Shown: piece by piece, positions 4,943 through 46,056 of the stretch
Layout of the letters: every line of letters begins with the position of its first letter
How positions within the stretch are numbered: position 1 is the first letter of the stretch
Source: a virus
Virus record (IMG/VR): IMGVR_UViG_3300032073_000007
Span: 47,273-111,272 of that record
Strand: one strand, 5' to 3'
DNA: 64,000 nt
The notes under the pieces: model-generated
What the model was told of the DNA's origin: nothing
What the model saw: only the letters and a program-made list of their open reading frames with translations
The model's database searches: none
Program-made: the position numbers and the translations under genes

Positions 4943-5580
4943 TTATCTAATCTTAATAATTTCTGTTTAAAATCTTTTGTTAATTTACCAACATATGGCA
5001 TTCTTTTAAAACTTACACCAGAAGACCTATTTTTGGCTTGTATACCTGTTCCAGAAGTAGAACTATCAAACCCTGTAGAACTAAATAAATATTGTCCCAA
5101 GTTAGTCAATCCCCCCTCTTCTATACTTCTAGCCCAGCTTTTGCCAGCCATCCAAGGTATTGGAGTTAATCCATATATTTCTTCAATGCTTGGAATAAAG
5201 AAGGTGATTTGATATTTTCCTGAATTATTTTTCCTTCTTACCTTAAATTTTATTTTTTCACTAAATATTTTAGATATAATCTGAGTTGGATTATCTCCTG
5301 AAGAAAAACCTATAAAGGAAAATAGGTTACCGTATCCCCCTAAAGTTCCACTGGTGTTAGATGCTCTAGGCCCAGCGTCAAGCTCTATTGTTATTGGATG
5401 AGCTTCAAATTCCTTAATTAACTCAGATTGTCTTTCTTGAATTTTGGGATCAATCAAGCCTCTGATGGCCATCGCCATGCTTTTATTATTAGGTGAATCT
5501 ACCGTTAGCTCTCTAAGTAATTCTTTTGCGTTGACGGTTACTACTGGGGTAGAGACCGACATAAAATCTCTTCCAGCCAT
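4939..5580 (-). CDS. Neck protein (putative)
   Basis: Position in head-tail module; translationally coupled overlaps. Confidence 0.4.
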   Translation of the reverse strand: MAGRDFMSVSTPVVTVNAKELLRELTVDSPNNKSMAMAIRGLIDPKIQERQSELIKEFEAHPITIELDAGPRASNTSGTLGGYGNLFSFIGFSSGDNPTQIISKIFSEKIKFKVRRKNNSGKYQITFFIPSIEEIYGLTPIPWMAGKSWARSIEEGGLTNLGQYLFSSTGFDSSTSGTGIQAKNRSSGVSFKRMPYVGKLTKDFKQKLLRLDK

Positions 5581-6026
5581 TAGTTTTCACGTTTTAAAAA
5601 TATTGAATAAAATTGAGTATCAAATGGGCCAATAACCTTTGCGTCTCCATCTACAACATATAGTTCATTATCAACCTCTATCTTTGAACAAATTTTAATT
5701 TTTTCATAAGCTGCTGCTTTTACTTTGATTCTAATTTGTCCCTCAGATCCAACTAGATTCATTTGCCCATTACCATCAATGATATCTTCTTTTTGCTCGT
5801 TTTTATAATATACTCTAGCACTGTAAGTATATCTTTCGAGAGTTTCTTCTGAAGATATTTTCGCTACATCTTTCCTCCTACCATATAGAGGATTATAATT
5901 TAATTCTACAGGAACACTTGAGACTTCTTTTACATAAACATGAATATCTCTAGCAAAAGTATCGTGAACGTCACTTAATGCTGAATTAATAGCTGTTTTT
6001 TCTGCGTCTGTAAGAAGTGAGGCCAT
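5580..6026 (-). CDS. Head-tail joining/stopper protein (putative)
   Basis: NPLYG motif, beta-rich C-terminus (KIEVDNELYVV), position. Confidence 0.5.
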   Translation of the reverse strand: MASLLTDAEKTAINSALSDVHDTFARDIHVYVKEVSSVPVELNYNPLYGRRKDVAKISSEETLERYTYSARVYYKNEQKEDIIDGNGQMNLVGSEGQIRIKVKAAAYEKIKICSKIEVDNELYVVDGDAKVIGPFDTQFYSIFLKREN

Positions 6027-19748: not shown

Positions 19749-19827
19749 CGTAACTCACTGATACTCAACGAGTTACGCGCGGCGGCCCGCCCCCGCCCCG
19801 TAACTCCTTGATAACCAACGACTTACG
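19749..19827 (+). repeat. 79-bp bipartite palindromic element, copy 1 (forward)
   Basis: CGTAACTCACTGATACTCAACGAGTTACG + CGCGGCGGCCCGCCCCCGCCC + CGTAACTCCTTGATAACCAACGACTTACG. Confidence 0.95.
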
Positions 19828-19975
19828 AAGATTCCTCATGTATCATACTTTCAGATCAACGCAAGCATTTAAATGAAAAAAATTAACCTGTCTGACAACT
19901 TAAAAAAAAATCATTTTAAAGGTAAAAAAAGCTTTTAATTCATACGGATCTGTGCTATACTTCTCCCAGCAAGAA

Positions 19976-20089
19976 AGCTCTATAGTTTAAAAAGTAAAAC
20001 ATTCTCCGCGACCGCTTCAACAATAAGTCACCGCAACCCCAATGGTTCGGGCGAGAAAGATAAAGGTGCAAGTCCTTTTAGAGCGACCA
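19976..20089 (+). ncRNA. tRNA-Pro(CGG)-like RNA with 39-nt insertion in the anticodon arm
   Basis: Acceptor GCTCTA/TAGAGC with GACCA end, D stem GTTT/AAAC, anticodon stem TTCTC/GAGAA, T arm AAAGG-TGCAAGT-CCTTT; own promoter (TATACT 19956-19961). Confidence 0.7.
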
Positions 20090-20151
20090 ATTTCCCTAAA
20101 AAAACAAAATAAAAGTTTGCACTATCTCAAAAACTAAAGTAGATTCTACTC

Positions 20152-20340
20152 ATGACAGAAAAAGAACAAATCGAACACCTCAAAGATCAAATCTTCAAAC
20201 TTCAAATGGTAATGAAGGGAGTTTCAGGCATCGCAGCAGCAAGGTCTTCATTCAAAGAGACTTCTGCCTTTAACAAGGAGACCTTCAAAAGAATCGAGAG
20301 CCAACTTGATGAAGCAGTCAAGGAAGTTCAGTTAGGGTAG
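20152..20340 (+). CDS. 62-aa helical early protein whose last codon and stop overlap the mini-tmRNA
   Basis: TTGCAC-17-TAGATT-6 nt-ATG. Confidence 0.75.
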   Translation: MTEKEQIEHLKDQIFKLQMVMKGVSGIAAARSSFKETSAFNKETFKRIESQLDEAVKEVQLG

Positions 20341-20399
20341 CAAGGGTTTCGACGGGACGCAAGTCGCGGATGGGGGTTCGACTCCCCCGCTATCCACCA
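20335..20399 (+). ncRNA. Mini-tmRNA: tRNA-like domain only, no tag reading frame
   Basis: GGGTAGC/GCTATCC acceptor with G3-U70, A discriminator, encoded CCA; stemless D loop AAGGGTTTCGAC; short helix capped by GCAA; GGAT; GGGGG-TTCGACT-CCCCC T arm. Confidence 0.85.
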
Positions 20400-20467
20400 A
20401 AAAAAAATCAAAATAAATACAAAAAAAGCTTTTTACTCACTCAAATCTCTGTTATAATTCTCTCGTT

Positions 20468-20803
20468 ATGAAAAACACCACTACCACTACCACCACCCGC
20501 TTCGATCACTCTCTCTATGGACTCAGTGATCAAGACCTCAAGAAAAAGCTCACCAATCGCGTTGTTATCTACTGGAACAGCGAAGAATCCTCCGTCAAGA
20601 ATGATGGTGTCCGTCAGTTCGTGGTCAAGTCAATCGACTACACTGGTCACGCCAAGGGTTCGGGTCGCCGTTACATCCAAGGGGAGTTCCAAGACCTCGA
20701 CGATGGAGGCAAGACCAAGTTCCGCACTCTCCACGTTGCGGGAATCGAAAAGGTGAAGGGTCGCGTGGCGACCGCTTACAAGCTAGCCAAATCAGTTTTT
20801 TAA
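20468..20803 (+). CDS. Stand-alone WYL-like domain protein (paralogue A)
   Basis: RQFVVKSI...GRRYI...DGGKTKFRTLHVAGIEKV; paralogue of 21930-22208. Confidence 0.5.
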   Translation: MKNTTTTTTTRFDHSLYGLSDQDLKKKLTNRVVIYWNSEESSVKNDGVRQFVVKSIDYTGHAKGSGRRYIQGEFQDLDDGGKTKFRTLHVAGIEKVKGRVATAYKLAKSVF

Positions 20804-20817
20804 GTGCATAGCGTGTT

Positions 20818-20854
20818 GCCCGTCAGTCTCTTCGGAGGCTGGCGGGTTTTTTTT
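20818..20854 (+). terminator. Intrinsic terminator
   Basis: GCCCGTCAGTCTC-TTCG-GAGGCTGGCGGGT plus T tract. Confidence 0.85.
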
Positions 20855-20883
20855 GCATTAAATTGTTTTTTGGCCTTGACAGC

Positions 20884-20962
20884 CGTAACTCCTTCATACT
20901 CAGTGAGTTACGCGCTGCGGCCAGCCCGCCCTGCGTAACTCCTTGATACTCAACGAGTTACG
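20884..20962 (+). repeat. 79-bp element, copy 2 (forward)
   Basis: 29+21+29 bp; core CGCTGCGGCCAGCCCGCCCTG. Confidence 0.95.
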
Positions 20963-21103
20963 TCACCTTACAAAATATGCAGTGTGATGCCCTGTCAAGT
21001 AAATATTTAGCTATTTGTTATTTGTTGTTCTAACCTGTAACCTAAGACAAAAAAAAGATAAAAAAACATTTGCACTCCTGCGATCTTCTGGTAGGTTACT
21101 CGC

Positions 21104-21340
21104 ATGACAGTTCAAAACCCTATTGGCCAACTCGCCCCGATGACAGAATCTGACCTGCGCGATATGCTCAGTGATGGGCCTCGCTGCGGGAACTGGAACC
21201 CTACGCCCGATGAGGTGCAGGAGGTTCTCGCTGAGATCCACTCTGATCTCGGTGATCGCGATCCTCAGTGGTCTACTGATCAGGACGGATTGGACCCCTC
21301 AGACGCTCAAGCCCTCCAGTCTTACCTCGACGCTGAATAA
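21104..21340 (+). CDS. Small acidic early protein
   Basis: TTGCAC-16-TAGGTT-6 nt-ATG; terminator at 21365-21391. Confidence 0.7.
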   Translation: MTVQNPIGQLAPMTESDLRDMLSDGPRCGNWNPTPDEVQEVLAEIHSDLGDRDPQWSTDQDGLDPSDAQALQSYLDAE

Positions 21341-21447
21341 TCAAAAGAGACAAGACTCTCTTCAAGGCTCCCGAAAGGGAGCTTTTTTTTTGTGCTTTTA
21401 TGTAAAAAAAAGATTGCCAAAAGCAAATTATCTGTTACACTACTCTC

Positions 21448-21666
21448 ATGTATACGTTCAGCTACTACATCGTCGCCAGCACAGGAGTTTACACAGGAGT
21501 CGCGATGTCGCGTTCTCCCAAGAAGGCTTCTGAAGAAGCCTCGCGGATCGCTTGGGAAAATCTCTACGAGGGGGATGCCAAAGCTGAATACTGTTCGGGC
21601 ATCTCCGTGGAGGGGTGGACAGCGTGGCGAGGTCATAAAAAAATCGCGGAATACATGGACATCTAA
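21448..21666 (+). CDS. Small early protein; stop codon lies inside element copy 3
   Basis: TTGCCA-16-TACACT-6 nt-ATG. Confidence 0.65.
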   Translation: MYTFSYYIVASTGVYTGVAMSRSPKKASEEASRIAWENLYEGDAKAEYCSGISVEGWTAWRGHKKIAEYMDI

Positions 21667-21740
21667 CTCCTTGATAATCAGGGAGTTACGGGGCGGGGGT
21701 AGGCCGCAGCGCGTAACTCATTGATATACAACGAGTTACG
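21662..21740 (-). repeat. 79-bp element, copy 3 (reverse core)
   Basis: Core GGGCGGGGGTAGGCCGCAGCG is the reverse complement of the consensus core. Confidence 0.95.
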
Positions 21741-21929
21741 ACTGAAAAAAAATGAATTTAAATGCAGAAATCGCTTGCATATCTGGTGATATTTGGTAAA
21801 CTATTTGCATCGAAGCTATTTAACCTATGCTTCTCTAACCTACAACAAAAACAGACCATGCTCAGAAAAAAATTAAAATTCAGCAAAAAACCTCTTGCAC
21901 TCACTCAAAATCCTGTTATACTTATCCCA

Positions 21930-22208
21930 ATGCAAACAAACACCATTACTGCCAACCTCACCCTTCCTACTAACCCTGTGCAACTTGCTTCTGCTCTTAC
22001 TGGCAAGACAGTTCACTATACAACTAAAAAAGATTCTTCTGTTACCTTCGACAGAGAAAGGGTCTTCAAGGTTGAATCCGTAGAGGACGTTTCAATCTCT
22101 CAATCAACGGGAGATCAATATGTAAATGTCAAGATCATTGACCCTCAAGATGGTGGTAAGGAGAAATACAGAAACCTCATTGTAGATAGAATTTCGACTG
22201 TTGTGTAG
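21930..22208 (+). CDS. Stand-alone WYL-like domain protein (paralogue B)
   Basis: Start reassigned to ATG 21930 after TTGCAC-16-TATACT; RVFKVESV...GDQYV...DGGKEKYRNLIVDRISTVV. Confidence 0.55.
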   Translation: MQTNTITANLTLPTNPVQLASALTGKTVHYTTKKDSSVTFDRERVFKVESVEDVSISQSTGDQYVNVKIIDPQDGGKEKYRNLIVDRISTVV

Positions 22209-22316
22209 GTGTGTAAACGCATAAGGGGTGGTAGGTGTGTGTGTGTCTTAAGTCCTGCCACCCCTTTCTACAACAAAAAATTTGACAAACAACAAACAAT
22301 AGAATAAATTAGCATC

Positions 22317-22538
22317 ATGCCTAAATCATCAGAAACACTTCGTATCGAAGTCAAAACACAGGAACAAGCCGCCATTCTTAACTATGCTCTTGGCTTGGTT
22401 CATCAGCACCTCGCAAGTCGTCTTGAGGAGGTAGAAGATAATAAACTTGATACCTTCTTAGATAATGTTAAGTGGACTCGCAAACACGCAAAGTCTCTTA
22501 ATGACAAGTTTTCTCTTAGTGAGTTACAGAATTCCTAG
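22317..22538 (+). CDS. Small early protein
   Basis: TTGACA-17-TAAATT-6 nt-ATG. Confidence 0.7.
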   Translation: MPKSSETLRIEVKTQEQAAILNYALGLVHQHLASRLEEVEDNKLDTFLDNVKWTRKHAKSLNDKFSLSELQNS

Positions 22539-22548
22539 GAGTTGAATT

Positions 22549-22696
22549 GGACCACAGAGAAATCATGGTTCATCTAGAAACTCCGAAGAACAGGTGGTAA
22601 CAGTGACCAACTCTTAATTGACTGGCACTCGTCAACAAGCCGACCCTCTCTCACTCTTCTAGACAGTGAGGGAGGGAACCACTTTCTTGCTAGATG
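22549..22696 (+). ncRNA. Candidate structured RNA
   Basis: Several nested helices, including the 12-bp CCCTCTCTCACT/AGTGAGGGAGGG and closing CATCTAG/CTAGATG. Confidence 0.45.
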
Positions 22697-22700
22697 GGGT

Positions 22701-22743
22701 AAGTCCCGTCCTCCTTCGTCACTGGGGGGCGGGGCTTTTCTTT
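22701..22743 (+). terminator. Intrinsic terminator immediately before the tRNA
   Basis: AAGTCCCGTCCTCC...GGGGGCGGGGCTT-TTCTTT. Confidence 0.7.
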
Positions 22744-22816
<73 letters not shown>

Positions 22817-22895
22817 CCTAACTCCTTAATACTCAGGGACTTACGCGCTGCGGGCGGCCCCCGCCCCGTAAGTCGTTGATACTCAACGACTTACG
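22817..22895 (+). repeat. 79-bp element, copy 4 (forward), abutting the tRNA 3' end
   Basis: Core CGCTGCGGGCGGCCCCCGCCC. Confidence 0.95.
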
Positions 22896-22998
22896 CAGGA
22901 AAAAGAAACACATGTTTTTAAGTCTGTCAAGCAGAAAAAAATAAAAGAAAAAGCTAAAAAAGGGTTGCATCAAATCAATTATGTGGTAAACTTCTTGC

Positions 22999-23757
22999 AT
23001 GTTGATACTAGCTAAAAACAAAGTCGATTCCGAGCAACTTGCAGAAGTCATCACTCCTGCCGCTACGGATACCCACACTCCAATCGGTCACGCACTCCTT
23101 GCGGAGCGCACTCGCAATGTCATCGCGAAGGCTGGTCTTGAGATCACTCAAGAAGAACACGCCATCGCGCGTGGCGGTCTCCGCTACTTCGGCGGCTTCG
23201 CCCTCAAGGGCGAGGCAATCGACGGGGATGATCGCAAGCTTGTGCTTGGTCTCCGCAACGCGCACGACAAGTCCTTTGCGGCTTCCGTGTGCATCGGCAA
23301 CCAGATGATGGTCTGCGAAAATCTTTGCTTCTCTTCTGATGTGAAGCTCGCTCGCCGTCACACCGTCAACATCCTTCGGGATCTGAACACGGTCCTTTCG
23401 TCTGCCGTCAGTCGCGTTACCTCGCACTGGGCTGACATGGGCAATCGGATTGCCTCCTACAAGGAGAGTGAAATCTCTAAGGAGGCGGCTTCCGACTTGG
23501 TTGTCGATCTTGCCGAGATGGGTGCGTTTCCTGCGCGTTCCGTCTACAAGGCGATTCAGGAGTTCCGCAACCCTCGCCATGAGGAGTTCAAAGGTGGGAC
23601 GCTCTGGACGCTCTACAACGGCGTGACTGAGCATCTCAAGGGTGGCGACCTTACCAAGTTGCCACAGCGCACGATGACCACGCAGTCTGTCTTTGACAGG
23701 CTCGCGGGCCACAAGCCCAAGATCGTCGAGGCCGAAGAGATTGCCTTGCCCGCATAG
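22999..23757 (+). CDS. DUF932-like protein
   Basis: THTPIGH, RNAHDKS, VCENL, ARRHT, TLWTLYNGVTE motifs; leaderless promoter; terminator at 23777-23807. Confidence 0.75.
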   Translation: MLILAKNKVDSEQLAEVITPAATDTHTPIGHALLAERTRNVIAKAGLEITQEEHAIARGGLRYFGGFALKGEAIDGDDRKLVLGLRNAHDKSFAASVCIGNQMMVCENLCFSSDVKLARRHTVNILRDLNTVLSSAVSRVTSHWADMGNRIASYKESEISKEAASDLVVDLAEMGAFPARSVYKAIQEFRNPRHEEFKGGTLWTLYNGVTEHLKGGDLTKLPQRTMTTQSVFDRLAGHKPKIVEAEEIALPA

Positions 23758-23854
23758 CCCTGCCGCTACCATCACAGGCCCGCATTCCGAAAGGGGTGCG
23801 GGCTTTTGCTTGCAAAAATAAAATGTTTTTTTAGTTGACACGGTATTCAAGCCT

Positions 23855-23933
23855 CATAACTCGTTGAATATCAACGAGTTACGGGGCGGGGGCCGCCCGC
23901 GCAGCGTAACTGCTTGATACTCAAGGACTTACG
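23855..23933 (-). repeat. 79-bp element, copy 5 (reverse core)
   Basis: Core GGGCGGGGGCCGCCCGCGCAG; its reverse complement matches the copy 4 core at 18/21. Confidence 0.95.
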
Positions 23934-23992
23934 ACTGAATTTTAATTCTTTTTTAATTTGACAGTTTTTTTTCTTTGGGGTATATTTTTGCC

Positions 23993-24199
23993 ATGACTAA
24001 GACATATAATATTTCTCGACGAGGATCGCGCACAAACCCACATGACCTACCTTTTGATTTTGTATTTGAGTGGTTTAATGGGACAGAAGAAATAGGTATT
24101 TTCTGCTCATTACACGCAGCGATCACGCTTGCAGAAGAATTTGAAAAGTTCGGTTATAAAGAGTTGGAGGGCAGCATTCAATTTACCTCTGCAATTTAA
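23993..24199 (+). CDS. Small early protein
   Basis: TTGACA-17-TATATT-6 nt-ATG (MTKTYN...). Confidence 0.65.
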   Translation: MTKTYNISRRGSRTNPHDLPFDFVFEWFNGTEEIGIFCSLHAAITLAEEFEKFGYKELEGSIQFTSAI

Positions 24200-25194: not shown

Positions 25195-25202
25195 CCCATC
25201 TC

Positions 25203-25281
25203 CGTAACTCCTTCATAATGAGGGAGTTACGCGCGGCGGCCCGCCCGCTCGGCGTAACTCGTTGATAATCAGTGACTTACG
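25203..25281 (+). repeat. 79-bp element, copy 6 (forward)
   Basis: Core CGCGGCGGCCCGCCCGCTCGG; marks the end of the plus-strand island. Confidence 0.95.
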
Positions 25282-25363
25282 ACAGATCAATGTATAAAAA
25301 AAACCGCACAAACGTGCGGTTCTGTGGTATGCTTATTTGCTTATTAAGGCTTTAACCTATAAC

Positions 25364-28052: not shown

Positions 28053-28128
28053 TGGTAGCGGGAGTGGGATTCGAACCCACACTTTAGCGATTTTAAGTCG
28101 CTTGCCTCTGCCGTTGGGCTACCCCGCC
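28053..28128 (-). tRNA. tRNA-Leu(UAA), short variable loop
   Basis: GGCGGGG...AGCGA-CTTAAAA-TCGCT-AAAGT-GTGGG-TTCGAAT-CCCAC-TCCCGCT-ACCA. Confidence 0.9.
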
Positions 28129-28213: not shown

Positions 28214-28606
28214 TCATTGTTCTATGATTTTTTCTCCAGTGTATCGAGATAATTGAGTAGAGGATATCTCATATTCATTACTTGCCCCTCTTGCTACTGA
28301 TCTGAACGTCATGTAGTCCTCTGGTAAAGCATGTATGTATAACCCCTTCTGTTCATTATAATACCCATTCTTCTCTTCAAGCAATTGAAGCATCTTTTCT
28401 AACTGGAATTTAGTTAATTTTACCCGAACATCAAATCTTTTGTATTTAGTAGGTTGTTTATCTACTGAAATAGATTCTTCGGGTAAGTTAAATATCTCTG
28501 TTACCTCAGATTCTTCCTCAATGAAGTGAGTAGCGACCAAGAATGCCAAGGCAAAGGTGACCGCAAATGATACTATTCCAATTTCAAGCCTTCTGTCTTT
28601 CTTCAT
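28214..28606 (-). CDS. Membrane-anchored hypothetical protein
   Basis: N-terminal TM helix. Confidence 0.6.
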   Translation of the reverse strand: MKKDRRLEIGIVSFAVTFALAFLVATHFIEEESEVTEIFNLPEESISVDKQPTKYKRFDVRVKLTKFQLEKMLQLLEEKNGYYNEQKGLYIHALPEDYMTFRSVARGASNEYEISSTQLSRYTGEKIIEQ

Positions 28607-36234: not shown

Positions 36235-39200
36235 TTAGCCTGAGTATTCTATATCGTCAATTTCTATCTCAAGTTTTCCTATGTCCTTGCGTTCTGCATA
36301 AACAACATAGAAATAATTAAGAGGAGTTTCTGTATTTGAACCTATAGTTACTTCTCCATCATCCGCGATTGATTCAACATAAAGATCTTGATTTGGACCT
36401 ATGGCTGTAATATCTACTGTCATCGAATCAATATGGACTAGACCAATCCAGTAATCAGGCATCTCAAGTATATTTGAGGTGCTTTTCCCTCGGAAATATA
36501 CACCATTTTCTGGACCCTCGATACACGCATGGAGTAACTGCTTACCCTCTTTTGTCGGGTGTTTTATTAAGAAGCTTTTTGATGAGCCTACAATAGAACC
36601 GCCAACTTGAAGTGCATAAGAAGCGCTTGTTACTCCTATGCCAACGTTACCTTGAATAATAGCTCCGTTAGATGGGGCAGTGTTCCCAACATAGCTAGCT
36701 CCAACAGCTATGCCTCCAGATACGTCTAGTTTGTTAGCTGGATTATTTGTTCCTATACCAACATTACCGTCTTGCTCTATAGAAAATCTTTCTCCACCAG
36801 TGGCACTATTGATATGTTCATAAATCCTAAAGGAACCCCTGCCACTACCACTTCTATTAACTCCTATACTCCATCCATAGTTAGTAACTGTGCTTGAAGC
36901 GAAGGAGATACCTTGCCATCCAGTATTATCAACTGTATTAGTAGATTCTAGTCGTATTTGACTAGAAGCCCATTGTGCAGCCACACCCATCGGTGCTATT
37001 GTGTTAATGCTACCTCCGACGGTCAGCTTTTGAGATGGACTTGCTGTCCCTATACCAACTTTATTATTTATAACCGTCCCACCTGAATTAACACCAAGTA
37101 AGATATCATAACCTGTTCCTCCATCATTACGTATTCTTAAATCATTACCAGCGTGGTTGAATTTCCACAAGTTACTATTATCACTGCGACCAAGCTCTAA
37201 TGATTCGTCGTTACCATTTGTTGATTCAAATTTAGCAGTTCCTTGGTATACATGAAGTTCCTGTTCTGGACTCGTTGTTCCTATACCAACATTACCTGAT
37301 AAAGTTGCCCCACCTGTTATAGAAACGCCTGTGCTTGTTGTCTCAAACCTTTTAGTATTATTATAGTAAAGTTCTACAGCATCGTTCTCACTTGCATTTA
37401 TAATTAATTCGTCTGTAGAAGCATTATAAACTCTAAACTGATTTGTGGATAAACGTAATCCACCAGACCCTGTATCATTTATATAACTATTAGAGCCATC
37501 GTGGTAGATTTGGAGATCGTTACCATGACCGAAAGTTATTCTTCCGAAACTAGTGCTAGACGAATCAAGTAGTTGAATATTACCACCAACATAAATACCT
37601 GTAGAAGTTGTCTCTAATTTTGCAGAATTATTATGGTATAAGTTTACCGCACCGCCTTGGTGAGCAATCAACATAGAAGAACTATCTGCCCCCAGTAACC
37701 TTAAGCTGTTGCTTTGTAAATTGAAATTACCTGTCCCAGTATCTTGAATATAACTATGGTTACCATCATGGAATATCTGGAGATCCAAGCCAGTTCCAAA
37801 GATGGCCTTCCCGTTATCTACAGCAGTTAAAGCAGTAGAGGAAGTTGTTATTACGCTTCCAGCGGTTAAATTATTAGCTTGTGCAATATTTACGTTACCT
37901 GCAAAGGTTGCATTAGTTGATGTATCTAAAGTTAAAGCAGTAGTATTACCTAGTATAAATCTTAATTCTCGAAGGTTATTTGAAGCGTTTACATAAGTTG
38001 ATTGAATATAACTATAAGCAGAATCATTTGTGCCTATTTGTATTGCTGTTCCACCCGATCCATTATGTATTGTTAAACCAGTAGACGCTACATTGCCAGA
38101 GGTTGTAGGCGCACCATTGGAATTAATTGATAATTTACTAAACGGGCTAGTTGTTCCTATACCAACGTTACCTCCGTTAAACCAGCTATTTCCTGCGGTA
38201 TCAATCCTTACGTCTTCTGTTCCTGCATCAAATAACGATAGCAAACCTTTATCAAGATTACTTCCTGTTCCTCTTGGGATTATTCTTGCGACACTATAAT
38301 CCGCTGACTTCAAGTATATCTCCGCGCCATCACCTTTAATGTCTAATGTTGCTGTCGGACTCGTTGTTCCTATACCAACATTGCCTGTGTTTGTTATACT
38401 TAATCGGGCATTAGTTCCTAAAGTAGTATTGTCTGCTATTTCAAAGGTGCTGCCATTAACACCTAACGCAAAAGTATTGGATGAAGCGGCTAATTTAATT
38501 TGAGGGCGTGAATCTCTTGAGCTTATTTCTACTGACCCACTACCGCCAACGTCACGGGTAAATTTAGCTAATGGCCCACCAACACCTCCTCCAGTTACCA
38601 AAAGACCTGTCCCAGCAGTAGCGTTATCGTCGATGTGAAATTTAGTTGTCGGACTCGCTATTCCTATACCAACATAGCCGTCAGATTGCTTCATAGAGAT
38701 AAGACCTGTCAGTGATCCACCTGTATTATATCCTTGAATTTCAAAACCTGTTGTATCGTTGTTTTGTATTTGGAAAGCCCCGAAAGTGTTATTGTAGATA
38801 GCTCCCGTGCTTGTATTTCTGTTAAGTCCTATTCTACCACCGTTGGCGTTTTGTATTTTTACATTACCGACTCTAACGCTACCATTTACTTCAAGCTTTT
38901 CATTAGGAGTAATTGTTCCTATACCAACGTTGCCTGTAGGTTGAAAAATTGTGTCGGCTACTGAATTTATCCTTAAATCAATGCCATCTGTGGTTATAGT
39001 GCCTACAGTTGATTCACTCCCGACTGAACCATATTTAAAGTGCATGAAGCCAGCACCAGATGTATTAATTGTAATATCACCGCCAGTTACATCTAACCTA
39101 GAGTCAGGAGTCGCTGTTCCGATACCAACGTTGCCGTTTGTTTTGAACCTAGCAATTTCAGATGATTCGATTTCAAAAGCTAAGTCACTATTGTTAATGA

Positions 39201-42200
39201 TTTCCCAATCAGATCCACCTCTTCTCAAATGAAGTCTTGCTTCGTGGGTTCCAGCATCTTCATGAACTGCAATCGTTGTATTAGCGCCATTACCGTAAAC
39301 TTCTAGCTTCCCAAAAGTCGGACTAGTTGTTCCGATACCGACCTTGCCAGCGTTAAACCAACTGTCTCCGTGAGCGCTTAACCTAATATCCTCGTTATTA
39401 GAAGCGTCTAAGATAGATATCTTTCCTGAACCTACCCCATCTAAAGAATGATTAATTTTGACAACGCCATTTGAGTTTGAAAAATGAGCTATATCTACAC
39501 TTGTAGTTGCAGTCGCAGCCACTTCTAACTTAGTGCTAGGACTAGTCGTTCCTATACCAACATTGCCGTCACCTTTGAGCCGCATGACTTCAGCGCCAGT
39601 GGTATTATTTCCATTAGAAACACCTAGAGCCATGTAGTTGTCTGCTACAGTAGAGAATTCCTTGGTTCTTATGTAAGAGACATAATTGGTTCCATCAAAT
39701 GTAAATTTGATACCACCTTCACCAGTCCCTTTATTTAGATTTAGCACATCAGTGCCTCCACCTGATCCCTTGATCTCCAGCTTGTTAGTCGGACCAGTTG
39801 TTCCTATACCAACGTTACCCGCCCCTTCATTTAGCACTAAAATACCGCCACCACCATTACCACTGTTAATGTAAGATCTAGTTTCGTCTACCCAAATTCT
39901 TATAGATCTACCAGCAGAAGCAGATAAAACACCTATACCCGCTTCATCAACATTAGTAGCTTGATTAACTTGTAAAGCTCCAAATGCATTAGGATTATTA
40001 GAGTTGCCTACTTGAACATCCCCGTCTACATGTAAATTTGCGATAGGATTCGTTGTTCCTATGCCAACGTTACCGTTAGTATCAATACGCATTCTTTCAT
40101 TACCAGCATTTGTAGTGAAAGTCAAAAACCCTCCTGTGGAACTACCTCCTCTGTAGAATGTTACAGCAGCGTTCTCTGTGGTATTATAATATAATCCATG
40201 TTTAAAAGCGTAAGCGTTACTCCCGTTACTTGTGCCGTTGTTATAAGTAGTTAGCCTAAATGCAGTTTCACTACCATTTATTAAGCTCATCCAAGCAGCG
40301 CCAGATGTAACAGAAACATCTAACTTAGCACTTGGACTAGTTGTTCCTATTCCAACACTATTAGTCGTAGTATTACCATTGTCAGTTACTTCTTGGAGAG
40401 TTGCGCTTCCAACTTGAGAATCTACATAACCTTTTGATGCTGCATCTGTAGAGTCTGTTACAGTGTCTATACCTTGGATACGTCCTGTTCCACCTAATGA
40501 TATATTCCCACTGTTTACGGTAAGCCCAGTGCTTGTAATGGAACCCATAGCTGTAGCAGCAGAACCATTCCAGTATTCAAAAATATACCCAGCACCTGTG
40601 TTTGTGCTAGTAAACCTATGATGTTGGCCACTAACGGCTGGAACTATATCTAAATGTCTAGATCCGCTAGCTTCTTCTAAACGCAAAGCCGCTCCTTTTA
40701 CATGAAGCTCCTGCTGTGGATCTTCTGTTGCTATACCGACAAAACCAGCATTAAAAGTCATGTGTGGATTAGATCCATCTCCATCTGCGAAAAGGTGTGT
40801 TTTTGATGAATCATCATAGAGAGCGAATCTGAATCCACCCCCTCCTGTATACTTATAAAAACCTCCAGCGTTAGAGTCTAACCTAATTCTAGTGCCTACC
40901 ACATGTAGTTGATTCGCTGGATTAGTTGTTCCTATGCCAACATTGCCAGAAGAGTCGATACGCATACGTTCTGAACCATCATCTAACCAACGTAGTCCCT
41001 GATTTGAACCATCAACTTGCATTTCCCAGTAACCAGAACCATTAGTCGCACGGTAACCAACATAAGCGGAAGTATTGGTGCTCTCTGTTATTACTCTCTC
41101 TGTTGTTCTCGCTGATGATATATGTAATCTACTTGATGGACCAGTTGTTCCTATGCCAACGTCACCATCGCTTTTAATAAGCATGGTTGTGGTGTTCGCC
41201 GAGTTGTGGGAACTACCAAACTTAAAATGAGTTTCTGAAAAAGAGTGGATATGAGCTATGTCAGCAGTTGAAGCTTGGAAACCAACATTCCTACTGGCAT
41301 TAAAATGCATTAACCCGTTATAATGATTGTTATCTATCTTTTGTGCGGTCCCAGAATTTGTATATAAAAGATCTGCTGAAAAAGTATTACCATTATCAGT
41401 TACTTCCTGCAAAGTATCTGCGCTACCAACTTGAGCATCGACATACGCTTTGTTTGCTGCGTCTGTAGAATCTGTTACAGTATCTATACCTTGGATACGT
41501 CCTGTTCCACCTAATGTTATGTTACCCCCGTCTACGGTAACAGTGCCTAAAACTTGTAAGGTGTTAGTCAAGCTTCTTTTTATATGGACTAGATCGGTCA
41601 GTGTAGAACCAATTCTTCCTCTAAACTCTAGTCGATCATCGGCTCCATTATAGTTAATATCAAAATTAGTCGTATTAGATACTTCTGAAAATATAATTGT
41701 GCCGTTAGGATCAGTGTTCGCTCCAGAATTATCGTATAATGTAATAGTCGGGTCCGTCTTAGCGATTGTTAAGTTGCCTGTAAGAGTTCCACCTGCTAGT
41801 GGCAAGTAACTTCCAAGACCAGACGTAATAGCATTATCAACGTAAGTTTTACTCGTAGCGTCAGTCCCTGATGAAACAGTATCAATACCTTGTATTCTAC
41901 CTGTCCCACCTAATGTCAAACTACCCCCAAGAGTTAAATCTCCTGCTTGAGTTAAAGTCATAGCGGTTTGCATACTAGCTCCACTGCCATTGCCGACCCT
42001 CCACAGCCATGAACCGTTGTTGTCGGATGTATTACTATCCCATTGATCAAATCTAGTAGTCATATTACCACTAGTTTCATCTTGTCTATGCACTAAATGT
42101 GCATTCCTGTCATCCACATATGCTCCCCAATATTGATTACTACTTCTACCAATTTTTATTTGAGGTTGAGTCGTTTGGACTTGTGCATTAGTAAATACCT

Positions 42201-45200
42201 GAAGACCTGCGCTCTCATCTGTATGAAGAATATTTAAACGCGCATTACTTGCGTCCCATTCCATGTATTCTCCCGAATCATTACCATAGAATTTGACATC
42301 ATATCCCGTATCATCTACGCCAACTTGGACGGTTCCGTCTACATGTAATTTAGATGCTGGGCCAGTTGTTCCTATTCCAACGTTGCCGCTATCGAACATT
42401 AAGGTCAGAAGGTTACTAGAGTCTGTATCATTATTAATTACAAATCTGTTACTTCCTTCTAATGCTAATTCTATAGTATCATGTCCACTTCTACCGAATT
42501 TCATTCCCGTAGAAGAAGGTTGATATAAATGCAGTGGCGCTGTCGGACTCGTTGTTCCTATACCAACTTTGCCAGAAGAGTCAATTCGTAATCTTTCGGA
42601 GTTATCTGTAGTAAAAGCTAGAAAATCACTTGACTCATTTCCAACTATTCTGACTCTGCCTATGTTTGCGTCTGCTGTTGACCAAGTTATTCTCTGACCG
42701 TCATCTAATCTTATGTTGCCACCCGAAATATCTAGTTTTTCTTGTGGACTAGTTGCTCCTATACCGACCTTATCTGAAGTTAATATTATATCTCCTGATG
42801 CACCAGATTGTAAGTATAAATTTTGGCTACTAGAGAAGTAGCTAGATCTAATTTTTTTTGTTGCTATACCTTCATTAGCATCTACCCTAACTTCTCCGTT
42901 AACATGGAGTTTTTCTGCTGGGCTATTTGTTCCTATACCAACGTTACCAGAAGAGTTAATACGTAACCTCTCTGTCGGATTATTTGAGTTAGTTCCATGA
43001 CCAATAATGAAGTTACCAGATCCATCGTTGTAAATTCTGCTATCTAAACCTCCAGAAGGAACGACAAACAACATATTAGGAGCTGCCGCAGTTATAGATA
43101 ATGTGCTATTAGCAACGTTAAGATTATCATCAAATTGAGATGTTCCCGCAACCTGCAACTTGGTGGACGGATTAGTTGTTCCTATACCAACGTTATTATT
43201 AAGTCTATTTATAACTAAAGCGTCTGAACCTAATTGTGTGTTCCTAATGCGGAACATGTCGTTAGTAGCTCCTCCAGTATATTGGTTTTCTAATTCCCAA
43301 GTAGTGTATGTCCCTTCTAATCGAAGGTGTGGACCAGAACTAGCTGACACTCCAGAGATACCGAATTCACCAAAAACGGTATTTGAAGTTAGATATTTAG
43401 AAACAAATGGAAGCTCTAACTGTGTCGTCCACCTGTCTGATAAATAATTTATAGCTGCTACTTTTACTAAATTTGCGTCTGTTGTTATTGAAATCTCAAT
43501 ATCAGTTAAGTAGTTATTCGTCGATATTGGAAACTTTATTACCTTGTAACCGCTATTGGTAGATACGTCTGTTCCTGTAGAAGAATAATAAACACCACCA
43601 CTTTTATGCCTTAAACTTATAGCCGTGTATGCATGGTTCGTATAATAGAAAGATATATAAACATTGCCTTGCGGGTAGGTGATACCATTAGACGGGACTC
43701 CTTGTTGACCAGCTACGTTTACATTTATGACATTAGTAGTGTTAGTAGGTAAGTTACCTGCCTGATCAAAGCCCCCATTAAAGAAACTTGGGCTACCTCC
43801 AGTCACTGTGAAGCGTAGATCTGCTTTATAAAAGACATCAGACAATTCATTTAGCTTAATTCTGCTCTGTCCAAATACCGAAACAACAGAGCTGTATTCT
43901 AACGTATCAATGCTAGCAGTGCCAGCTACGTGTAATTTAGAAGACGGATTAGTTGTTCCTATACCAACGTTGCCTGCACTATCAATAACGAAATCTGCTG
44001 TCTGACCATTGCCATTTACAACCTCTAAAAGATTAGCAGAGGTGTGGACATTTCTCGCTAGTAATTGTATAGCTGTTACTCCATTTGCGGCGCTAGAAGC
44101 TACTTGAGCAGGACCGTTTGTTTTTTGGAAATGAAGTTGTTGTATTGTAGATCCAAATTGTATTTCAGCAGAGTTACCTCTTACATAACGCGAAGTATCA
44201 GTTCCAAATTGAAGTGTTCCGAAAGATGTGCTACTCGCATCTTCAATTATCCCGATACCTTTAACATGAAGAGTTTGAGATGGATTAGTTGTTCCTATCC
44301 CTACTTTACCGCCGTCATCTATAACAAGTGGCGAACTTGAATAATCTCCACCTATGTTAAATATAGCTTTATTATTAGCATTATCATAATTTATAGCTAA
44401 ACATTTATTAGTGCTAGCTTCGGAGCCAACATAAATAGATGAAACTCCACTAGTTCTATCTTGACCAAAAATTGCTTGGTTTTGGCTGCTTCCTGCAACC
44501 GAAAGAGATAGATCTGGACTATCTGTTCCTATACCGACATTACCATCAGAATCAATCCGCATGGTTTCAGCAGAAATGCCTGTGCCATTAGTAGAAAAAA
44601 TTAAATCATTATCTGTATTAGATATAATAGAACCCCTACCGCCAGCAGGATCTCTAAACAACAAACCTGCATTATAAGAGTTGGAGACTAAGAAATCTAT
44701 GTTGTTATCTTTTGCTTCGGCAGCGGTGCTGATAGACAATGCCTCGGCTGGGGCGTTATTACCTATTCCTACATTACCGCCAGCGGCTGGCATCAAAGAT
44801 ATATCAGGGTCACCAGCCCCAGCATTTGTTACTATTTCAAACCTATTAAATCTTGAGCTTATCCTAGCAATGTTTGCACTAGCTACACTACCATCAACTT
44901 CTATGTAATTAGACCCAGCATTTTGGAATCGAGCAATACCGCTTCCTAAATGGAATTTAGTTGAAGGACTATCTGTTCCTATACCGACATTACCAGCAGT
45001 TTCGTTTAGTAATAAATCGGCAGTTGGGTCGATGCTTAGATCTCCAGCGTTTGTTGTAATCTTTCTATTGCCAAGACCACCACCAAAAAATGTAAGGTCA
45101 TCTGCTACAATATCAACACCATGAGCGTTGTTAGGGTTGGTGAGCGTGAATCCATCCGCTGCATCCATTTCGATTTTGGAGTTAGCTGCCCCTTTAATAT

Positions 45201-46056
45201 CGTTAGTCCCTATATCAATACTGCCTCCACGAACCTCAAGAGCGGAGCTTGGAGAGGTTGTTCCGATTCCCAAGTTGCCAGTAATGAAAGAATTGCTACC
45301 ATCTCCAGCTAATCTAACCGTTTCATTAGAACCTGTATCATACAGTCTTAGTTGACCACCCCCAGCAGAGAATTGAACTATTCTAGCAGCTAAATTATTA
45401 TCGGCTTTTCTTATAGAGAAATCTGCTGATGTCCCCACAATTGTCAAAGCATCATCAGGAGTCGATGTCCCTATTCCCACATTGCCAACTTGTGTAATTC
45501 TTACTTTTTCTGTGCCGTTGGTATAGAGCTGCATGAAGTCGCCGTGGTCGTTGCCATCAATACCCATATTTCTACCACCAGCGCTCCTAGCCCAAATTCC
45601 GAATTCAGCTCTTATGTGTTTACTGTTAGCTATTAAGTCATTTGCTTGAAAATCAAGTATCTCACCATTAGAATCAATAATGTTGTCTTGACTTAATGAG
45701 AGCTTGGAGCCTGATATATGTGCAACTTTTATGTCAGTTGTTGTCGTATTACCTCTACTAGTAACAGTTTGTAAAGTATCTGCTTCTGGTGATGCTCCTG
45801 TCATCACAGGGTTGCCACCAACAGTGATTGCTGTTGAGAAATTTCCGCTTGTGCCATGAATAGCGCCCTCTACATCTAGTGTAAATTGAGGGTCTGTCGT
45901 TCCTATACCCACATTGCTGCCCGTAAACCAAATGTTTCCCCCTGTAGCGTCTAACCTTATAGGCGCGGTAGAAGTATGAAAAGAATCATCACAACCTGCG
46001 ACTCCAGTATTGAATTCGATTACTCCTGATTGTGGGCTGATAATAATATTAGACAT
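36235..46056 (-). CDS. Giant modular tail fibre/adhesin (3273 aa)
   Basis: About 30 GNVGIGTT junctions; C-terminal KSFLIKHP...LHACIEGPE...PDYW chaperone-like domain. Confidence 0.8.
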   Translation of the reverse strand: MSNIIISPQSGVIEFNTGVAGCDDSFHTSTAPIRLDATGGNIWFTGSNVGIGTTDPQFTLDVEGAIHGTSGNFSTAITVGGNPVMTGASPEADTLQTVTSRGNTTTTDIKVAHISGSKLSLSQDNIIDSNGEILDFQANDLIANSKHIRAEFGIWARSAGGRNMGIDGNDHGDFMQLYTNGTEKVRITQVGNVGIGTSTPDDALTIVGTSADFSIRKADNNLAARIVQFSAGGGQLRLYDTGSNETVRLAGDGSNSFITGNLGIGTTSPSSALEVRGGSIDIGTNDIKGAANSKIEMDAADGFTLTNPNNAHGVDIVADDLTFFGGGLGNRKITTNAGDLSIDPTADLLLNETAGNVGIGTDSPSTKFHLGSGIARFQNAGSNYIEVDGSVASANIARISSRFNRFEIVTNAGAGDPDISLMPAAGGNVGIGNNAPAEALSISTAAEAKDNNIDFLVSNSYNAGLLFRDPAGGRGSIISNTDNDLIFSTNGTGISAETMRIDSDGNVGIGTDSPDLSLSVAGSSQNQAIFGQDRTSGVSSIYVGSEASTNKCLAINYDNANNKAIFNIGGDYSSSPLVIDDGGKVGIGTTNPSQTLHVKGIGIIEDASSTSFGTLQFGTDTSRYVRGNSAEIQFGSTIQQLHFQKTNGPAQVASSAANGVTAIQLLARNVHTSANLLEVVNGNGQTADFVIDSAGNVGIGTTNPSSKLHVAGTASIDTLEYSSVVSVFGQSRIKLNELSDVFYKADLRFTVTGGSPSFFNGGFDQAGNLPTNTTNVINVNVAGQQGVPSNGITYPQGNVYISFYYTNHAYTAISLRHKSGGVYYSSTGTDVSTNSGYKVIKFPISTNNYLTDIEISITTDANLVKVAAINYLSDRWTTQLELPFVSKYLTSNTVFGEFGISGVSASSGPHLRLEGTYTTWELENQYTGGATNDMFRIRNTQLGSDALVINRLNNNVGIGTTNPSTKLQVAGTSQFDDNLNVANSTLSITAAAPNMLFVVPSGGLDSRIYNDGSGNFIIGHGTNSNNPTERLRINSSGNVGIGTNSPAEKLHVNGEVRVDANEGIATKKIRSSYFSSSQNLYLQSGASGDIILTSDKVGIGATSPQEKLDISGGNIRLDDGQRITWSTADANIGRVRIVGNESSDFLAFTTDNSERLRIDSSGKVGIGTTSPTAPLHLYQPSSTGMKFGRSGHDTIELALEGSNRFVINNDTDSSNLLTLMFDSGNVGIGTTGPASKLHVDGTVQVGVDDTGYDVKFYGNDSGEYMEWDASNARLNILHTDESAGLQVFTNAQVQTTQPQIKIGRSSNQYWGAYVDDRNAHLVHRQDETSGNMTTRFDQWDSNTSDNNGSWLWRVGNGSGASMQTAMTLTQAGDLTLGGSLTLGGTGRIQGIDTVSSGTDATSKTYVDNAITSGLGSYLPLAGGTLTGNLTIAKTDPTITLYDNSGANTDPNGTIIFSEVSNTTNFDINYNGADDRLEFRGRIGSTLTDLVHIKRSLTNTLQVLGTVTVDGGNITLGGTGRIQGIDTVTDSTDAANKAYVDAQVGSADTLQEVTDNGNTFSADLLYTNSGTAQKIDNNHYNGLMHFNASRNVGFQASTADIAHIHSFSETHFKFGSSHNSANTTTMLIKSDGDVGIGTTGPSSRLHISSARTTERVITESTNTSAYVGYRATNGSGYWEMQVDGSNQGLRWLDDGSERMRIDSSGNVGIGTTNPANQLHVVGTRIRLDSNAGGFYKYTGGGGFRFALYDDSSKTHLFADGDGSNPHMTFNAGFVGIATEDPQQELHVKGAALRLEEASGSRHLDIVPAVSGQHHRFTSTNTGAGYIFEYWNGSAATAMGSITSTGLTVNSGNISLGGTGRIQGIDTVTDSTDAASKGYVDSQVGSATLQEVTDNGNTTTNSVGIGTTSPSAKLDVSVTSGAAWMSLINGSETAFRLTTYNNGTSNGSNAYAFKHGLYYNTTENAAVTFYRGGSSTGGFLTFTTNAGNERMRIDTNGNVGIGTTNPIANLHVDGDVQVGNSNNPNAFGALQVNQATNVDEAGIGVLSASAGRSIRIWVDETRSYINSGNGGGGILVLNEGAGNVGIGTTGPTNKLEIKGSGGGTDVLNLNKGTGEGGIKFTFDGTNYVSYIRTKEFSTVADNYMALGVSNGNNTTGAEVMRLKGDGNVGIGTTSPSTKLEVAATATTSVDIAHFSNSNGVVKINHSLDGVGSGKISILDASNNEDIRLSAHGDSWFNAGKVGIGTTSPTFGKLEVYGNGANTTIAVHEDAGTHEARLHLRRGGSDWEIINNSDLAFEIESSEIARFKTNGNVGIGTATPDSRLDVTGGDITINTSGAGFMHFKYGSVGSESTVGTITTDGIDLRINSVADTIFQPTGNVGIGTITPNEKLEVNGSVRVGNVKIQNANGGRIGLNRNTSTGAIYNNTFGAFQIQNNDTTGFEIQGYNTGGSLTGLISMKQSDGYVGIGIASPTTKFHIDDNATAGTGLLVTGGGVGGPLAKFTRDVGGSGSVEISSRDSRPQIKLAASSNTFALGVNGSTFEIADNTTLGTNARLSITNTGNVGIGTTSPTATLDIKGDGAEIYLKSADYSVARIIPRGTGSNLDKGLLSLFDAGTEDVRIDTAGNSWFNGGNVGIGTTSPFSKLSINSNGAPTTSGNVASTGLTIHNGSGGTAIQIGTNDSAYSYIQSTYVNASNNLRELRFILGNTTALTLDTSTNATFAGNVNIAQANNLTAGSVITTSSTALTAVDNGKAIFGTGLDLQIFHDGNHSYIQDTGTGNFNLQSNSLRLLGADSSSMLIAHQGGAVNLYHNNSAKLETTSTGIYVGGNIQLLDSSSTSFGRITFGHGNDLQIYHDGSNSYINDTGSGGLRLSTNQFRVYNASTDELIINASENDAVELYYNNTKRFETTSTGVSITGGATLSGNVGIGTTSPEQELHVYQGTAKFESTNGNDESLELGRSDNSNLWKFNHAGNDLRIRNDGGTGYDILLGVNSGGTVINNKVGIGTASPSQKLTVGGSINTIAPMGVAAQWASSQIRLESTNTVDNTGWQGISFASSTVTNYGWSIGVNRSGSGRGSFRIYEHINSATGGERFSIEQDGNVGIGTNNPANKLDVSGGIAVGASYVGNTAPSNGAIIQGNVGIGVTSASYALQVGGSIVGSSKSFLIKHPTKEGKQLLHACIEGPENGVYFRGKSTSNILEMPDYWIGLVHIDSMTVDITAIGPNQDLYVESIADDGEVTIGSNTETPLNYFYVVYAERKDIGKLEIEIDDIEYSG

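Follow-up and report, generated by a model that had tools for sequence, protein, structure and literature searches.

The stretch of DNA analysed here, called the window below, comprises 64,000 nucleotides (nt) of IMG/VR virus record IMGVR_UViG_3300032073_000007 (positions 47,273 to 111,272). On its plus strand, at 20335-20399, lies a 65-nt element, the mini-tmRNA, whose sequence supports its identification as the tRNA-like domain (TLD) of transfer-messenger RNA (tmRNA, the ssrA product) without the message region. An earlier note on this DNA, made from the letters alone, had proposed the same, and the proposal is borne out by an end-to-end alignment to the Rfam tmRNA model RF00023, by a family of covarying relatives, and by the TLD-only RNA of Mycobacterium phage DS6A, which matches the model in the same way. 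That note also held that tag-less ssrA was not known from phages. This is wrong, since the DS6A form has been published (PMC4131195, PMC11915505), and the window element is a very compact marine addition to the TLD-only tmRNAs already known from phage.

Identity and fold of the element

The letters at 20335-20399 are identical to the earlier transcription, and the 7-bp acceptor stem, the G3-U70 wobble, the discriminator A and the encoded CCA described there can all be read in them (Table 1). The acceptor stem is fully paired (7 of 7), with G20337:T20393 as the G3:U70 wobble, and helix 2 has four standard pairs out of five and one internal G.G mismatch. Only 14 nt separate the D-loop analogue from the linker, and they hold no resume codon, tag frame or pseudoknots. 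The G3:U70 pair, A73 and the 12-bp stack of acceptor and T arm are determinants for alanyl-tRNA synthetase (AlaRS) and EF-Tu, while the loop, the linker and the helix-2 junction make up the SmpB surface. The minimum-free-energy fold is the expected one, at -27.4 kcal/mol, and its z-score is only -1.5, so that stability alone is no evidence for the element.

The cmsearch check proposed in the earlier note gave one alignment, in which RF00023 runs globally from model position 1 to 374 over 20335-20399, with its 312-nt core reduced to 4 nt and nearly all upper-case consensus positions of the TLD matched. The score is 35.3 bits, with an E-value of 5.5e-13 in a search of 231 nt, or about 1e-10 when scaled to the whole window, and it falls below the gathering cut-off of 47 bits. 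Because of this shortfall ARAGORN and the default, gathering-threshold Rfam scan make no call at 20335-20399; the only RNAs they report are tRNA-Met(CAT) at 22744 and tRNA-Leu(TAA) at 28053. Within the Rfam tRNA clan, the tmRNA model is the one that scores best on the element.

Table 1. Coordinates of the mini-tmRNA, its parts and its surroundings in the window
Feature	Position	Strand	Basis or remark
TLD-only mini-tmRNA gene, 65 nt	20335..20399	+	sequence; RF00023 end-to-end alignment; model R1, 80 bits (window copy belongs to the R1 seed); family covariation
Acceptor stem, 5' strand GGGTAGC	20335..20341	+	pairs with GCTATCC 20389-20395
D-loop analogue AAGGGTTTCGAC	20342..20353	+	tmRNA signature GG.UUCGAC; aligns to RF00023 consensus GGaUUCGAC
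Helix 2 stub GGGAC/GTCGC, loop GCAA	20354..20367	+	20354-20358 pairs with 20363-20367; loop 20359-20362
Linker GGAT (tmRNA consensus GGAC)	20368..20371	+	RF00023 alignment
T arm, stem GGGGG/CCCCC (5 bp), loop TTCGACT	20372..20388	+	RF00023 alignment; fold
Acceptor stem, 3' strand GCTATCC	20389..20395	+	
Discriminator A (20396) and encoded CCA (20397-20399)	20396..20399	+	sequence
ORF62, open reading frame of 62 amino acids	20152..20340	+	TAG stop 20338-20340 inside acceptor stem (positions 4-6)
Putative promoter TTGCAC-17 nt-TAGATT	20117..20145	+	by eye; ends 6 nt before the ORF62 ATG
First terminator-like hairpin and T run downstream of the mini-tmRNA	20818..20857	+	probable transcription-unit end
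80-bp repeat copies	about 19749-19830, 20883-20965, 21664-21746, 22819-22895, 23854-23939, 25202-25286		

Set against the full RF00023 family, the element has the features of the TLD, namely the acceptor stem with G3:U70, the discriminator A, the GG.UUCGAC loop, a linker of the GGAC type and the T arm. The mRNA-like domain, with its resume codon and its tag frame and stop, is missing (312 model positions correspond to 4 nt), as are the pseudoknots PK1-PK4, and the score stays under 47 bits. In layout and conservation it agrees with a TLD-only tmRNA of the DS6A type: it is a single piece in the standard order with a short hairpin on helix 2, its length lies between 60 and 85 nt, it has no tag frame, and it is encoded by a phage, with compensatory changes among the 13 variants that related phages carry (42 contigs).

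Other classes of small RNA were considered and rejected. An elongator tRNA-Ala is ruled out, as there is neither a D stem nor an anticodon, no room for an anticodon arm and no ARAGORN call. A two-piece permuted tmRNA (RF04321 and relatives) is likewise ruled out, because only the T arm matches, at 10.4 bits, and the order of the parts here is the standard one.

Conservation within the subfamily

A search of viral and metagenome contigs with a pattern that fixed the acceptor stem GGGTAGC/GCTATCC and left the T stem free found 13 distinct versions of the element, 63-67 nt long, in 42 marine contigs. The T stem is GGGGG/CCCCC in 11 of the 13 versions, and CCA is encoded in every member. Helix 2 has been swapped wholesale with its pairing kept, appearing as GGGAC/GTCGC (the window), GCTT/AAGC, GCTTG/CAAGC, GTAA/TTAC and GTAT/ATGC. 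Its loop may be GCAA, GCAG, GTTA, TATA, GCAAA, GCACAA or TTAACG, and this variation makes the GNRA cap incidental. The earlier description of helix 2 as capped by a GNRA tetraloop thus stands for the GCAA of the window itself; it does not extend to the relatives, and it missed the G.G mismatch.

The loss of the message region had been called clean rather than decayed, and we reach the same view. All 13 variants in the 42 contigs keep the three helices, and no uncompensated stem change was found among them. The copy in the related contig L148 is identical to that of the window at 64 of 65 positions, and the sole stem change, G to T, turns the G.G mismatch into G.U, while the sequence past the downstream A-run can no longer be aligned between the two. 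A conserved element beside unalignable downstream sequence is the opposite of decay. The closest relatives, whose flanks are 91-99.6% identical, all carry the mini form, as seen with a pattern that is blind to a full-length ssrA at the locus.

These observations bear directly on the idea that the element is a non-functional remnant, either a decayed ssrA copy or an ssrA-derived attachment site of an integrating phage. Its position under the Rfam cut-off counts in favour of this. We nevertheless regard this explanation as very improbable, since both halves are present and pairing, the stems covary in the 13 subfamily variants and in the 97 distinct members of the wider family described below, and the near-identity of the window and L148 copies persists where the sequence downstream has diverged beyond alignment. 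The more specific version, an ssrA-derived attP fragment, is ruled out by the 5' half, which is present and pairs, and by the lack of any integrase family among the Pfam matches listed (25 of 33 families, for the 61 window ORFs of 95-300 amino acids).

The wider family and covariation

The IMG/VR viral contigs were also scanned with a looser pattern, which fixed only TTCGAC, GGAY and the T loop and allowed a gap of 8-38 nt, and it found at least 120 loci. Among the 121 matches of this first scan (the 120 listed and the window's own copy), three features absent from the pattern recur almost without exception: a perfect 7-bp acceptor stem in 114, G3:U70 in 118 and a discriminator A in 120. When two scans are pooled, 129 of the 149 matches listed have both the perfect acceptor stem and G3:U70, and they reduce to 97 distinct sequences. 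These fall into a major size class of about 82 nt and a minor one of 62-69 nt. The three T-stem pairs that the pattern left free are paired in all 97, with four to five pair types each, and in helix 2 the consecutive outer pairs average 5.7, compared with 0.62 in shuffled sequences. The linker is GGAT, as in the window, in 11 of the 97, and CCA is encoded in only 33.

For the covariation test we used a register-correct alignment (A4) of nine short-class sequences. A MAFFT alignment of 19 short-class sequences was dropped because the acceptor stem was out of register in it, and the 97 sequences were handled with a register-exact script. In the nine-sequence alignment 99.2% of cells are paired, the only unpaired cell being the G.G of the window itself, and 10 of the 15 pairs have changed on both sides. 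None of 500 shuffles reached its covariation score, and slid controls are 48-61% paired. The nine sequences were chosen for acceptor pairing, which makes the evidence for helix 1 partly circular; that for helices 2 and 3 is free of this.

The search for covarying homologues proposed in the earlier note has therefore found them, and all three helices covary. The data show selection on each of the three helices as well as on the elements of alanine identity. In environmental phages the TLD-only kind of tmRNA is common, and neither ARAGORN nor Rfam at its default threshold detects it.

One further element of this appearance was seen in a bacterial genome. It is 82 nt long, TLD-only-like, and lies at 5554-5635 of the locus extracted from Streptomyces sp. 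NPDC056835 (L152; NZ_JBHUBB010000004.1), where R1, a model of the short class built from relatives of the window element, gives it 59.8 bits. Several T-arm-like matches lie near it, and its location may be a prophage or a tRNA island. With the same model, no second copy of the element was found in the 64,000-nt window.

Comparison with known TLD-only RNAs

The closest published parallel is the entry "Mycobacterium phage DS6A (TLD only)" listed by Hudson, Lau and Williams 2014 (PMC4131195). The DS6A element lies at 979-1061 of our extracted locus L149, corresponding to about 28478-28560 of JN698994.1, and is tmID 11587 of the tmRNA Website. Like the window element, it is phage-encoded, in the standard order, has G3:U70 and A73, and lacks both tag frame and pseudoknots. 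RF00023 aligns to it end to end with the core deleted and gives it a similar score (34.7 versus 35.3 bits), and it too is unannotated in its record. Unlike the window element, with its 65 nt and its five-position helix 2 closed by a tetraloop, the DS6A RNA is about 82 nt long, which is the commonest class among the IMG/VR matches listed, and its longer helix 2 carries an inner CCGC-ACG-CGG hairpin. Its CCA is not encoded (ACTA), whereas that of the window is, and the hosts differ, an actinobacterium in one case and a marine host in the other. Model R1 gives the DS6A element 28.4 bits (E 2e-5), close to the 25.8 bits of an ordinary tRNA-Met, so that direct sequence homology is weak and the link to the window element is one of architecture.

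Full-length ssrA of RF00023 shares with the element the alanine identity elements, the GG.UUCGAC loop, the GGAY linker, the T arm and the ACCA end. About 312 model positions, including the resume codon, the tag frame and PK1-4, are absent from the window element, which cannot template a tag. Its design is also essentially that of engineered TLD constructs. Those of Gutmann and colleagues (2003) and Bessho and colleagues (2007), reportedly made for co-crystals with SmpB, and that of Shimizu and Ueda (2006), reportedly used for peptidyl transfer in vitro, are said to bind SmpB and to retain the acceptor stem, the T arm, the D loop and a helix 2 that is shortened and capped. Those RNAs are artificial and derived from host tmRNA.

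Tag-less forms occur in organelles as well. The 2025 tmRNA database paper (PMC11915505) describes plastid tmRNAs of about 65 bp without a coding sequence (CDS) in Mallomonadaceae and a tag-less mitochondrial form in jakobids (Jacob et al. 2004); like the window element these are TLD only, about 65 nt long and kept under selection. The organellar forms are the sole tmRNA of their compartment and have a dedicated SmpB, whereas the phage form competes with the full-length tmRNA of its host, and this coexistence makes a dominant-negative role plausible for the phage form only.

A literature search on mini-, truncated, tagless and minimal tmRNA returned no phage examples, and the wide spread of TLD-only tmRNA in uncultured phages is under-reported in print. 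The 65-nt sequence was also compared by blastn with 50,697 phage records, which gave matches to the T arm or the 3' half only; the three matches inspected, in PA_L9, phiAbaA1 and Ea9-2, do not have the TLD-only layout.

Probable transcription unit and stop-codon overlap

The mini-tmRNA directly follows ORF62, whose stop codon lies inside the acceptor stem (Table 1). The ORF62 protein is conserved in at least 12 related contigs, and neither it nor its neighbours has a PHROG match. It was rejected as a protein partner of the RNA, as its homologues occur in close relatives only and not beside other TLDs. Upstream of ORF62 is the putative promoter of Table 1, which a consensus promoter scan did not report; both of its hexamers are largely conserved in L148. 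From these hexamers we infer that it would drive a co-transcript of ORF62 and the mini-tmRNA. No terminator was found between ORF62 and the element, and the first one downstream lies more than 400 nt away, so the RNA must be cut from a longer transcript.

Two assembled contigs from RNA libraries cover this region and hint at expression. One, from a metatranscriptome (run X20), extends over 20225-20397 and so includes the border between ORF62 and the TLD; the other, from an oligo-dT library (run X15), covers 19928-20329, ending 5 nt before the TLD. Pieces of 31 nt from RNA libraries at 20397-20428 are matches to an A-run and were ignored. The lack of RNA-library contig cover elsewhere in the stretch carries no meaning.

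The proximity of a stop codon recurs. In every subfamily variant with enough upstream sequence, an ORF stops at -7 to +3 of the 5' end of the RNA. The proteins encoded by these ORFs are of five unrelated families, namely ORF62, a P-loop protein of 306 amino acids (aa), a protein of 141 aa, a membrane protein of 63-71 aa and another protein of 62 aa. The offset is +3 (GGG-TAG) in the window group and in L186, L189 and L170, -2 (TA|G, with G1 shared) in the L116 and L077 groups, -4 in L070, and -7 in the L148 group, in which ORF62 has a separate stop codon owing to an insertion of 13 nt. In the wider family a stop codon falls within -7 to +6 in 23 of 104 contexts, with a peak of 9 at -2, compared with 18 of 247 for ordinary tRNAs at the same loci. 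At offsets -2 and +3 cleavage by RNase P would remove the stop codon, so that the upstream mRNA would often, not always, become a non-stop message.

Tight packing of genes could by itself produce this overlap. Another thought is that the mini-tmRNA and the preceding gene form one functional unit, in which the RNA would rescue its own non-stop message in cis without a tag, or in which the protein would be made only from the unprocessed precursor. We consider such a unit quite unlikely; if it were true, translation from the precursor only would couple maturation of the RNA to the output of the upstream protein.

The same arrangement would suit a role in RNA-processing punctuation, in which the element is mainly a site for RNase P and 3' processing. 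Cutting of an early polycistronic transcript there would set or stabilise the 3' terminus of the message upstream, and the RNA, once excised, would have no job of its own. The position directly behind ORFs of five unrelated families, the excess of abutting ORFs over ordinary tRNAs in the wider family and the missing terminator after ORF62 are all in keeping with it. RNase P and RNase Z, however, need only the stacked acceptor and T arms, and punctuation leaves G3:U70, A73, the GG.UUCGAC loop, the GGAY linker and the covarying helix 2 unexplained. We hold it to be improbable.

Proposed function

On balance we lean towards the view that the phage TLD-only RNA would be a dominant-negative competitor of the host tmRNA-SmpB system, preventing tagging during infection. 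The mini-tmRNA would be co-transcribed with the upstream 62-aa gene ORF62, cut by RNase P at 20334/20335 and trimmed at its 3' end to the encoded CCA. Host AlaRS would then charge it with alanine by way of G3:U70 and A73, and the RNA would bind host SmpB and, when charged, also EF-Tu. Its competition with the full-length tmRNA of the host, both for SmpB and for stalled ribosomes, would keep degradation tags from being added. All of these biochemical steps, as well as the benefit to the phage, are what we infer. SmpB titration and tag-less entry into the ribosome, the two outcomes that the earlier note had suggested, are the mechanisms that published work considers for DS6A and the mitochondria of jakobids.

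The precedent for inhibition is the DS6A TLD-only RNA or a similar molecule, reported to be a strong inhibitor of the endogenous tmRNA of E. coli, perhaps through titration of SmpB (PMC4131195, citing Mao et al. 2009); the database paper, too, attributes inhibition of the endogenous E. coli tmRNA to the DS6A form (PMC11915505). As for SmpB itself (PF01668), none was found in the contigs of five relatives, which are fragments estimated to be 6-15% complete, and none is among the Pfam families listed (25 of 33) for the 61 window ORFs of 95-300 aa. The RNA would accordingly have to use the SmpB of the host.

Several points weigh against a purely competitive role. The near-invariance of G3:U70 and A73 would be unexplained by titration of SmpB alone and seems to point to a step that depends on alanylation, such as entry into the ribosome, and inhibition is reported not to need a chargeable RNA (PMC4131195). 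The G.G mismatch of helix 2 adjoins the region that SmpB contacts. The analysis took in about 64 kb out of an estimated genome size of about 140 kb, and a phage SmpB could lie elsewhere in this genome. Among 185,579 representatives of bacterial species, none was found whose tmRNA ends at 3' in a sequence that matches the acceptor stem, which leaves no clue to the host. The RNA-library contigs, finally, are assemblies, which cannot show ends or exclude carry-over of DNA.

Since the alanine identity is conserved even though inhibition reportedly needs no charging, a ribosomal step is likely in the natural function, and this keeps productive, tag-free rescue as the main rival. According to this alternative, ribosomes that have stalled on phage mRNAs, broken or processed, would be entered by the alanyl-TLD and host SmpB, and the peptide would pass to the TLD. 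Either drop-off of the peptidyl-tRNA followed by hydrolysis, or an ArfB-like factor, would then free the ribosomes, so that these are recycled and the phage proteins remain untagged. Such a role has been proposed for the tag-less tmRNA of jakobid mitochondria, which retain it together with SmpB, and the CDS-less plastid forms of about 65 bp are comparable (PMC11915505). A TLD-only tmRNA has served in vitro as a substrate for peptidyl transfer, in a reaction blocked by kirromycin (PMC3895274, citing Shimizu and Ueda 2006), implying that RNAs of this type gain access to the ribosome and can take on a peptide. Titration of SmpB would not call for nearly so strong a conservation of the alanine identity elements and the A-CCA end, and excision of the RNA, by stripping the upstream phage mRNA of its stop codon in most subfamily variants, would create just such a substrate. 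There is, on the other side, no known release mechanism for a peptidyl-Ala-TLD, the sole tested phage example acted as an inhibitor (PMC4131195, PMC11915505), and the stop-codon overlap is not universal, as the offsets of -4 and -7 in close relatives show. We judge tag-free rescue to be rather unlikely as the natural role of the RNA.

A defence decoy was also considered, in which the RNA, instead of acting on trans-translation, would sequester a host factor with affinity for tmRNA or tRNA-like shapes, such as a nuclease that cleaves tmRNA or tRNA or a defence protein with an SmpB-like domain. Predicted SmpB-like OB folds of the CoCoNuT type II and III-A systems may bind tmRNA (PMC11090510), a phage anti-CRISPR protein works with fragments of tRNA and tmRNA (PMC11662646), and the element lies in an early-region island together with another odd tRNA-like gene. 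The idea is a conjecture and a long shot, given that the element is linked neither to a defence gene of this kind nor to a protein partner and that the upstream ORF62 is limited to close relatives.

Should the competitor reading hold, or the RNA redirect trans-translation in some other way, a molecule of 65 nt would be a minimal genetically encoded inhibitor, and phages would appear to manipulate ribosome rescue routinely. Bacteria rely on trans-translation as their main route for rescuing ribosomes and tagging proteins, and the pathway is an antibiotic target. Measured against a published record of one mycobacteriophage example, what the present locus adds is a marine form that is very compact, a set of 13 variants that covary and an upstream stop-codon overlap that recurs, and its value is modest.

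Phage setting and neighbouring features

The window belongs to a phage, as its genes for a terminase large subunit, PhoH, GP88, MazG and a sigma-factor region 2 indicate. Relatives of it are present in IMG/VR, and DNA of the window was found in seawater, marine and viral metagenomes, all or part of it being present in 20 sequencing runs from 17 studies. One related contig (L090) is 21 kb long, 95% identical and estimated to be 15% complete, and extrapolation from these figures gives the genome size of about 140 kb used above. Megablast of 5 kb found no close cultured relative. The terminase is about 25% identical to those of Bacillus phages, a match that gives no useful lineage or host.

The exact 3' half of the element (T arm and GCTATCCACCA) has no match in the 185,579 bacterial species genomes. 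A relaxed pattern of the 3' end gave six matches in the same genomes, none with the loop and linker signature of tmRNA; two of them have a GGATAGC...GCTATCC stem typical of an ordinary tRNA.

Around 250 nt upstream of the mini-tmRNA, at 19976-20086 on the plus strand, is a tRNA gene with about 45 nt in place of the anticodon loop. It scores 41.6 bits with the Rfam tRNA model, which is above the cut-off, in the sensitive scan only, and ARAGORN is silent on it. Related contigs carry it with 84-98% identity; one of them is L077, in which 1.8 kb separate it from the TLD. The G+C content is 47% at 20001-24000, the early-region island with the small RNAs, compared with 36-40% elsewhere in the window.

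Cross-matches in a blastn comparison of L090 with the window revealed about six copies of an 80-bp repeat (Table 1), which are 75-87% alike and occur in both orientations. They split the early region of the plus strand into cassettes of about 1 kb, and the one with the mini-tmRNA is flanked by the first and second copies. Among the mid-sized ORFs of the window (95-300 aa), Pfam matches include SprT-like, DUF1599 (nucleotide-modification associated) and sigma-70 region 2, and one ORF has a PNKP-type phosphatase domain (E 4e-6) that hints at repair of RNA ends. Two giant ORFs lie next to each other on the minus strand, at 36235-46056 (3273 aa) and 46066-55848 (3260 aa).

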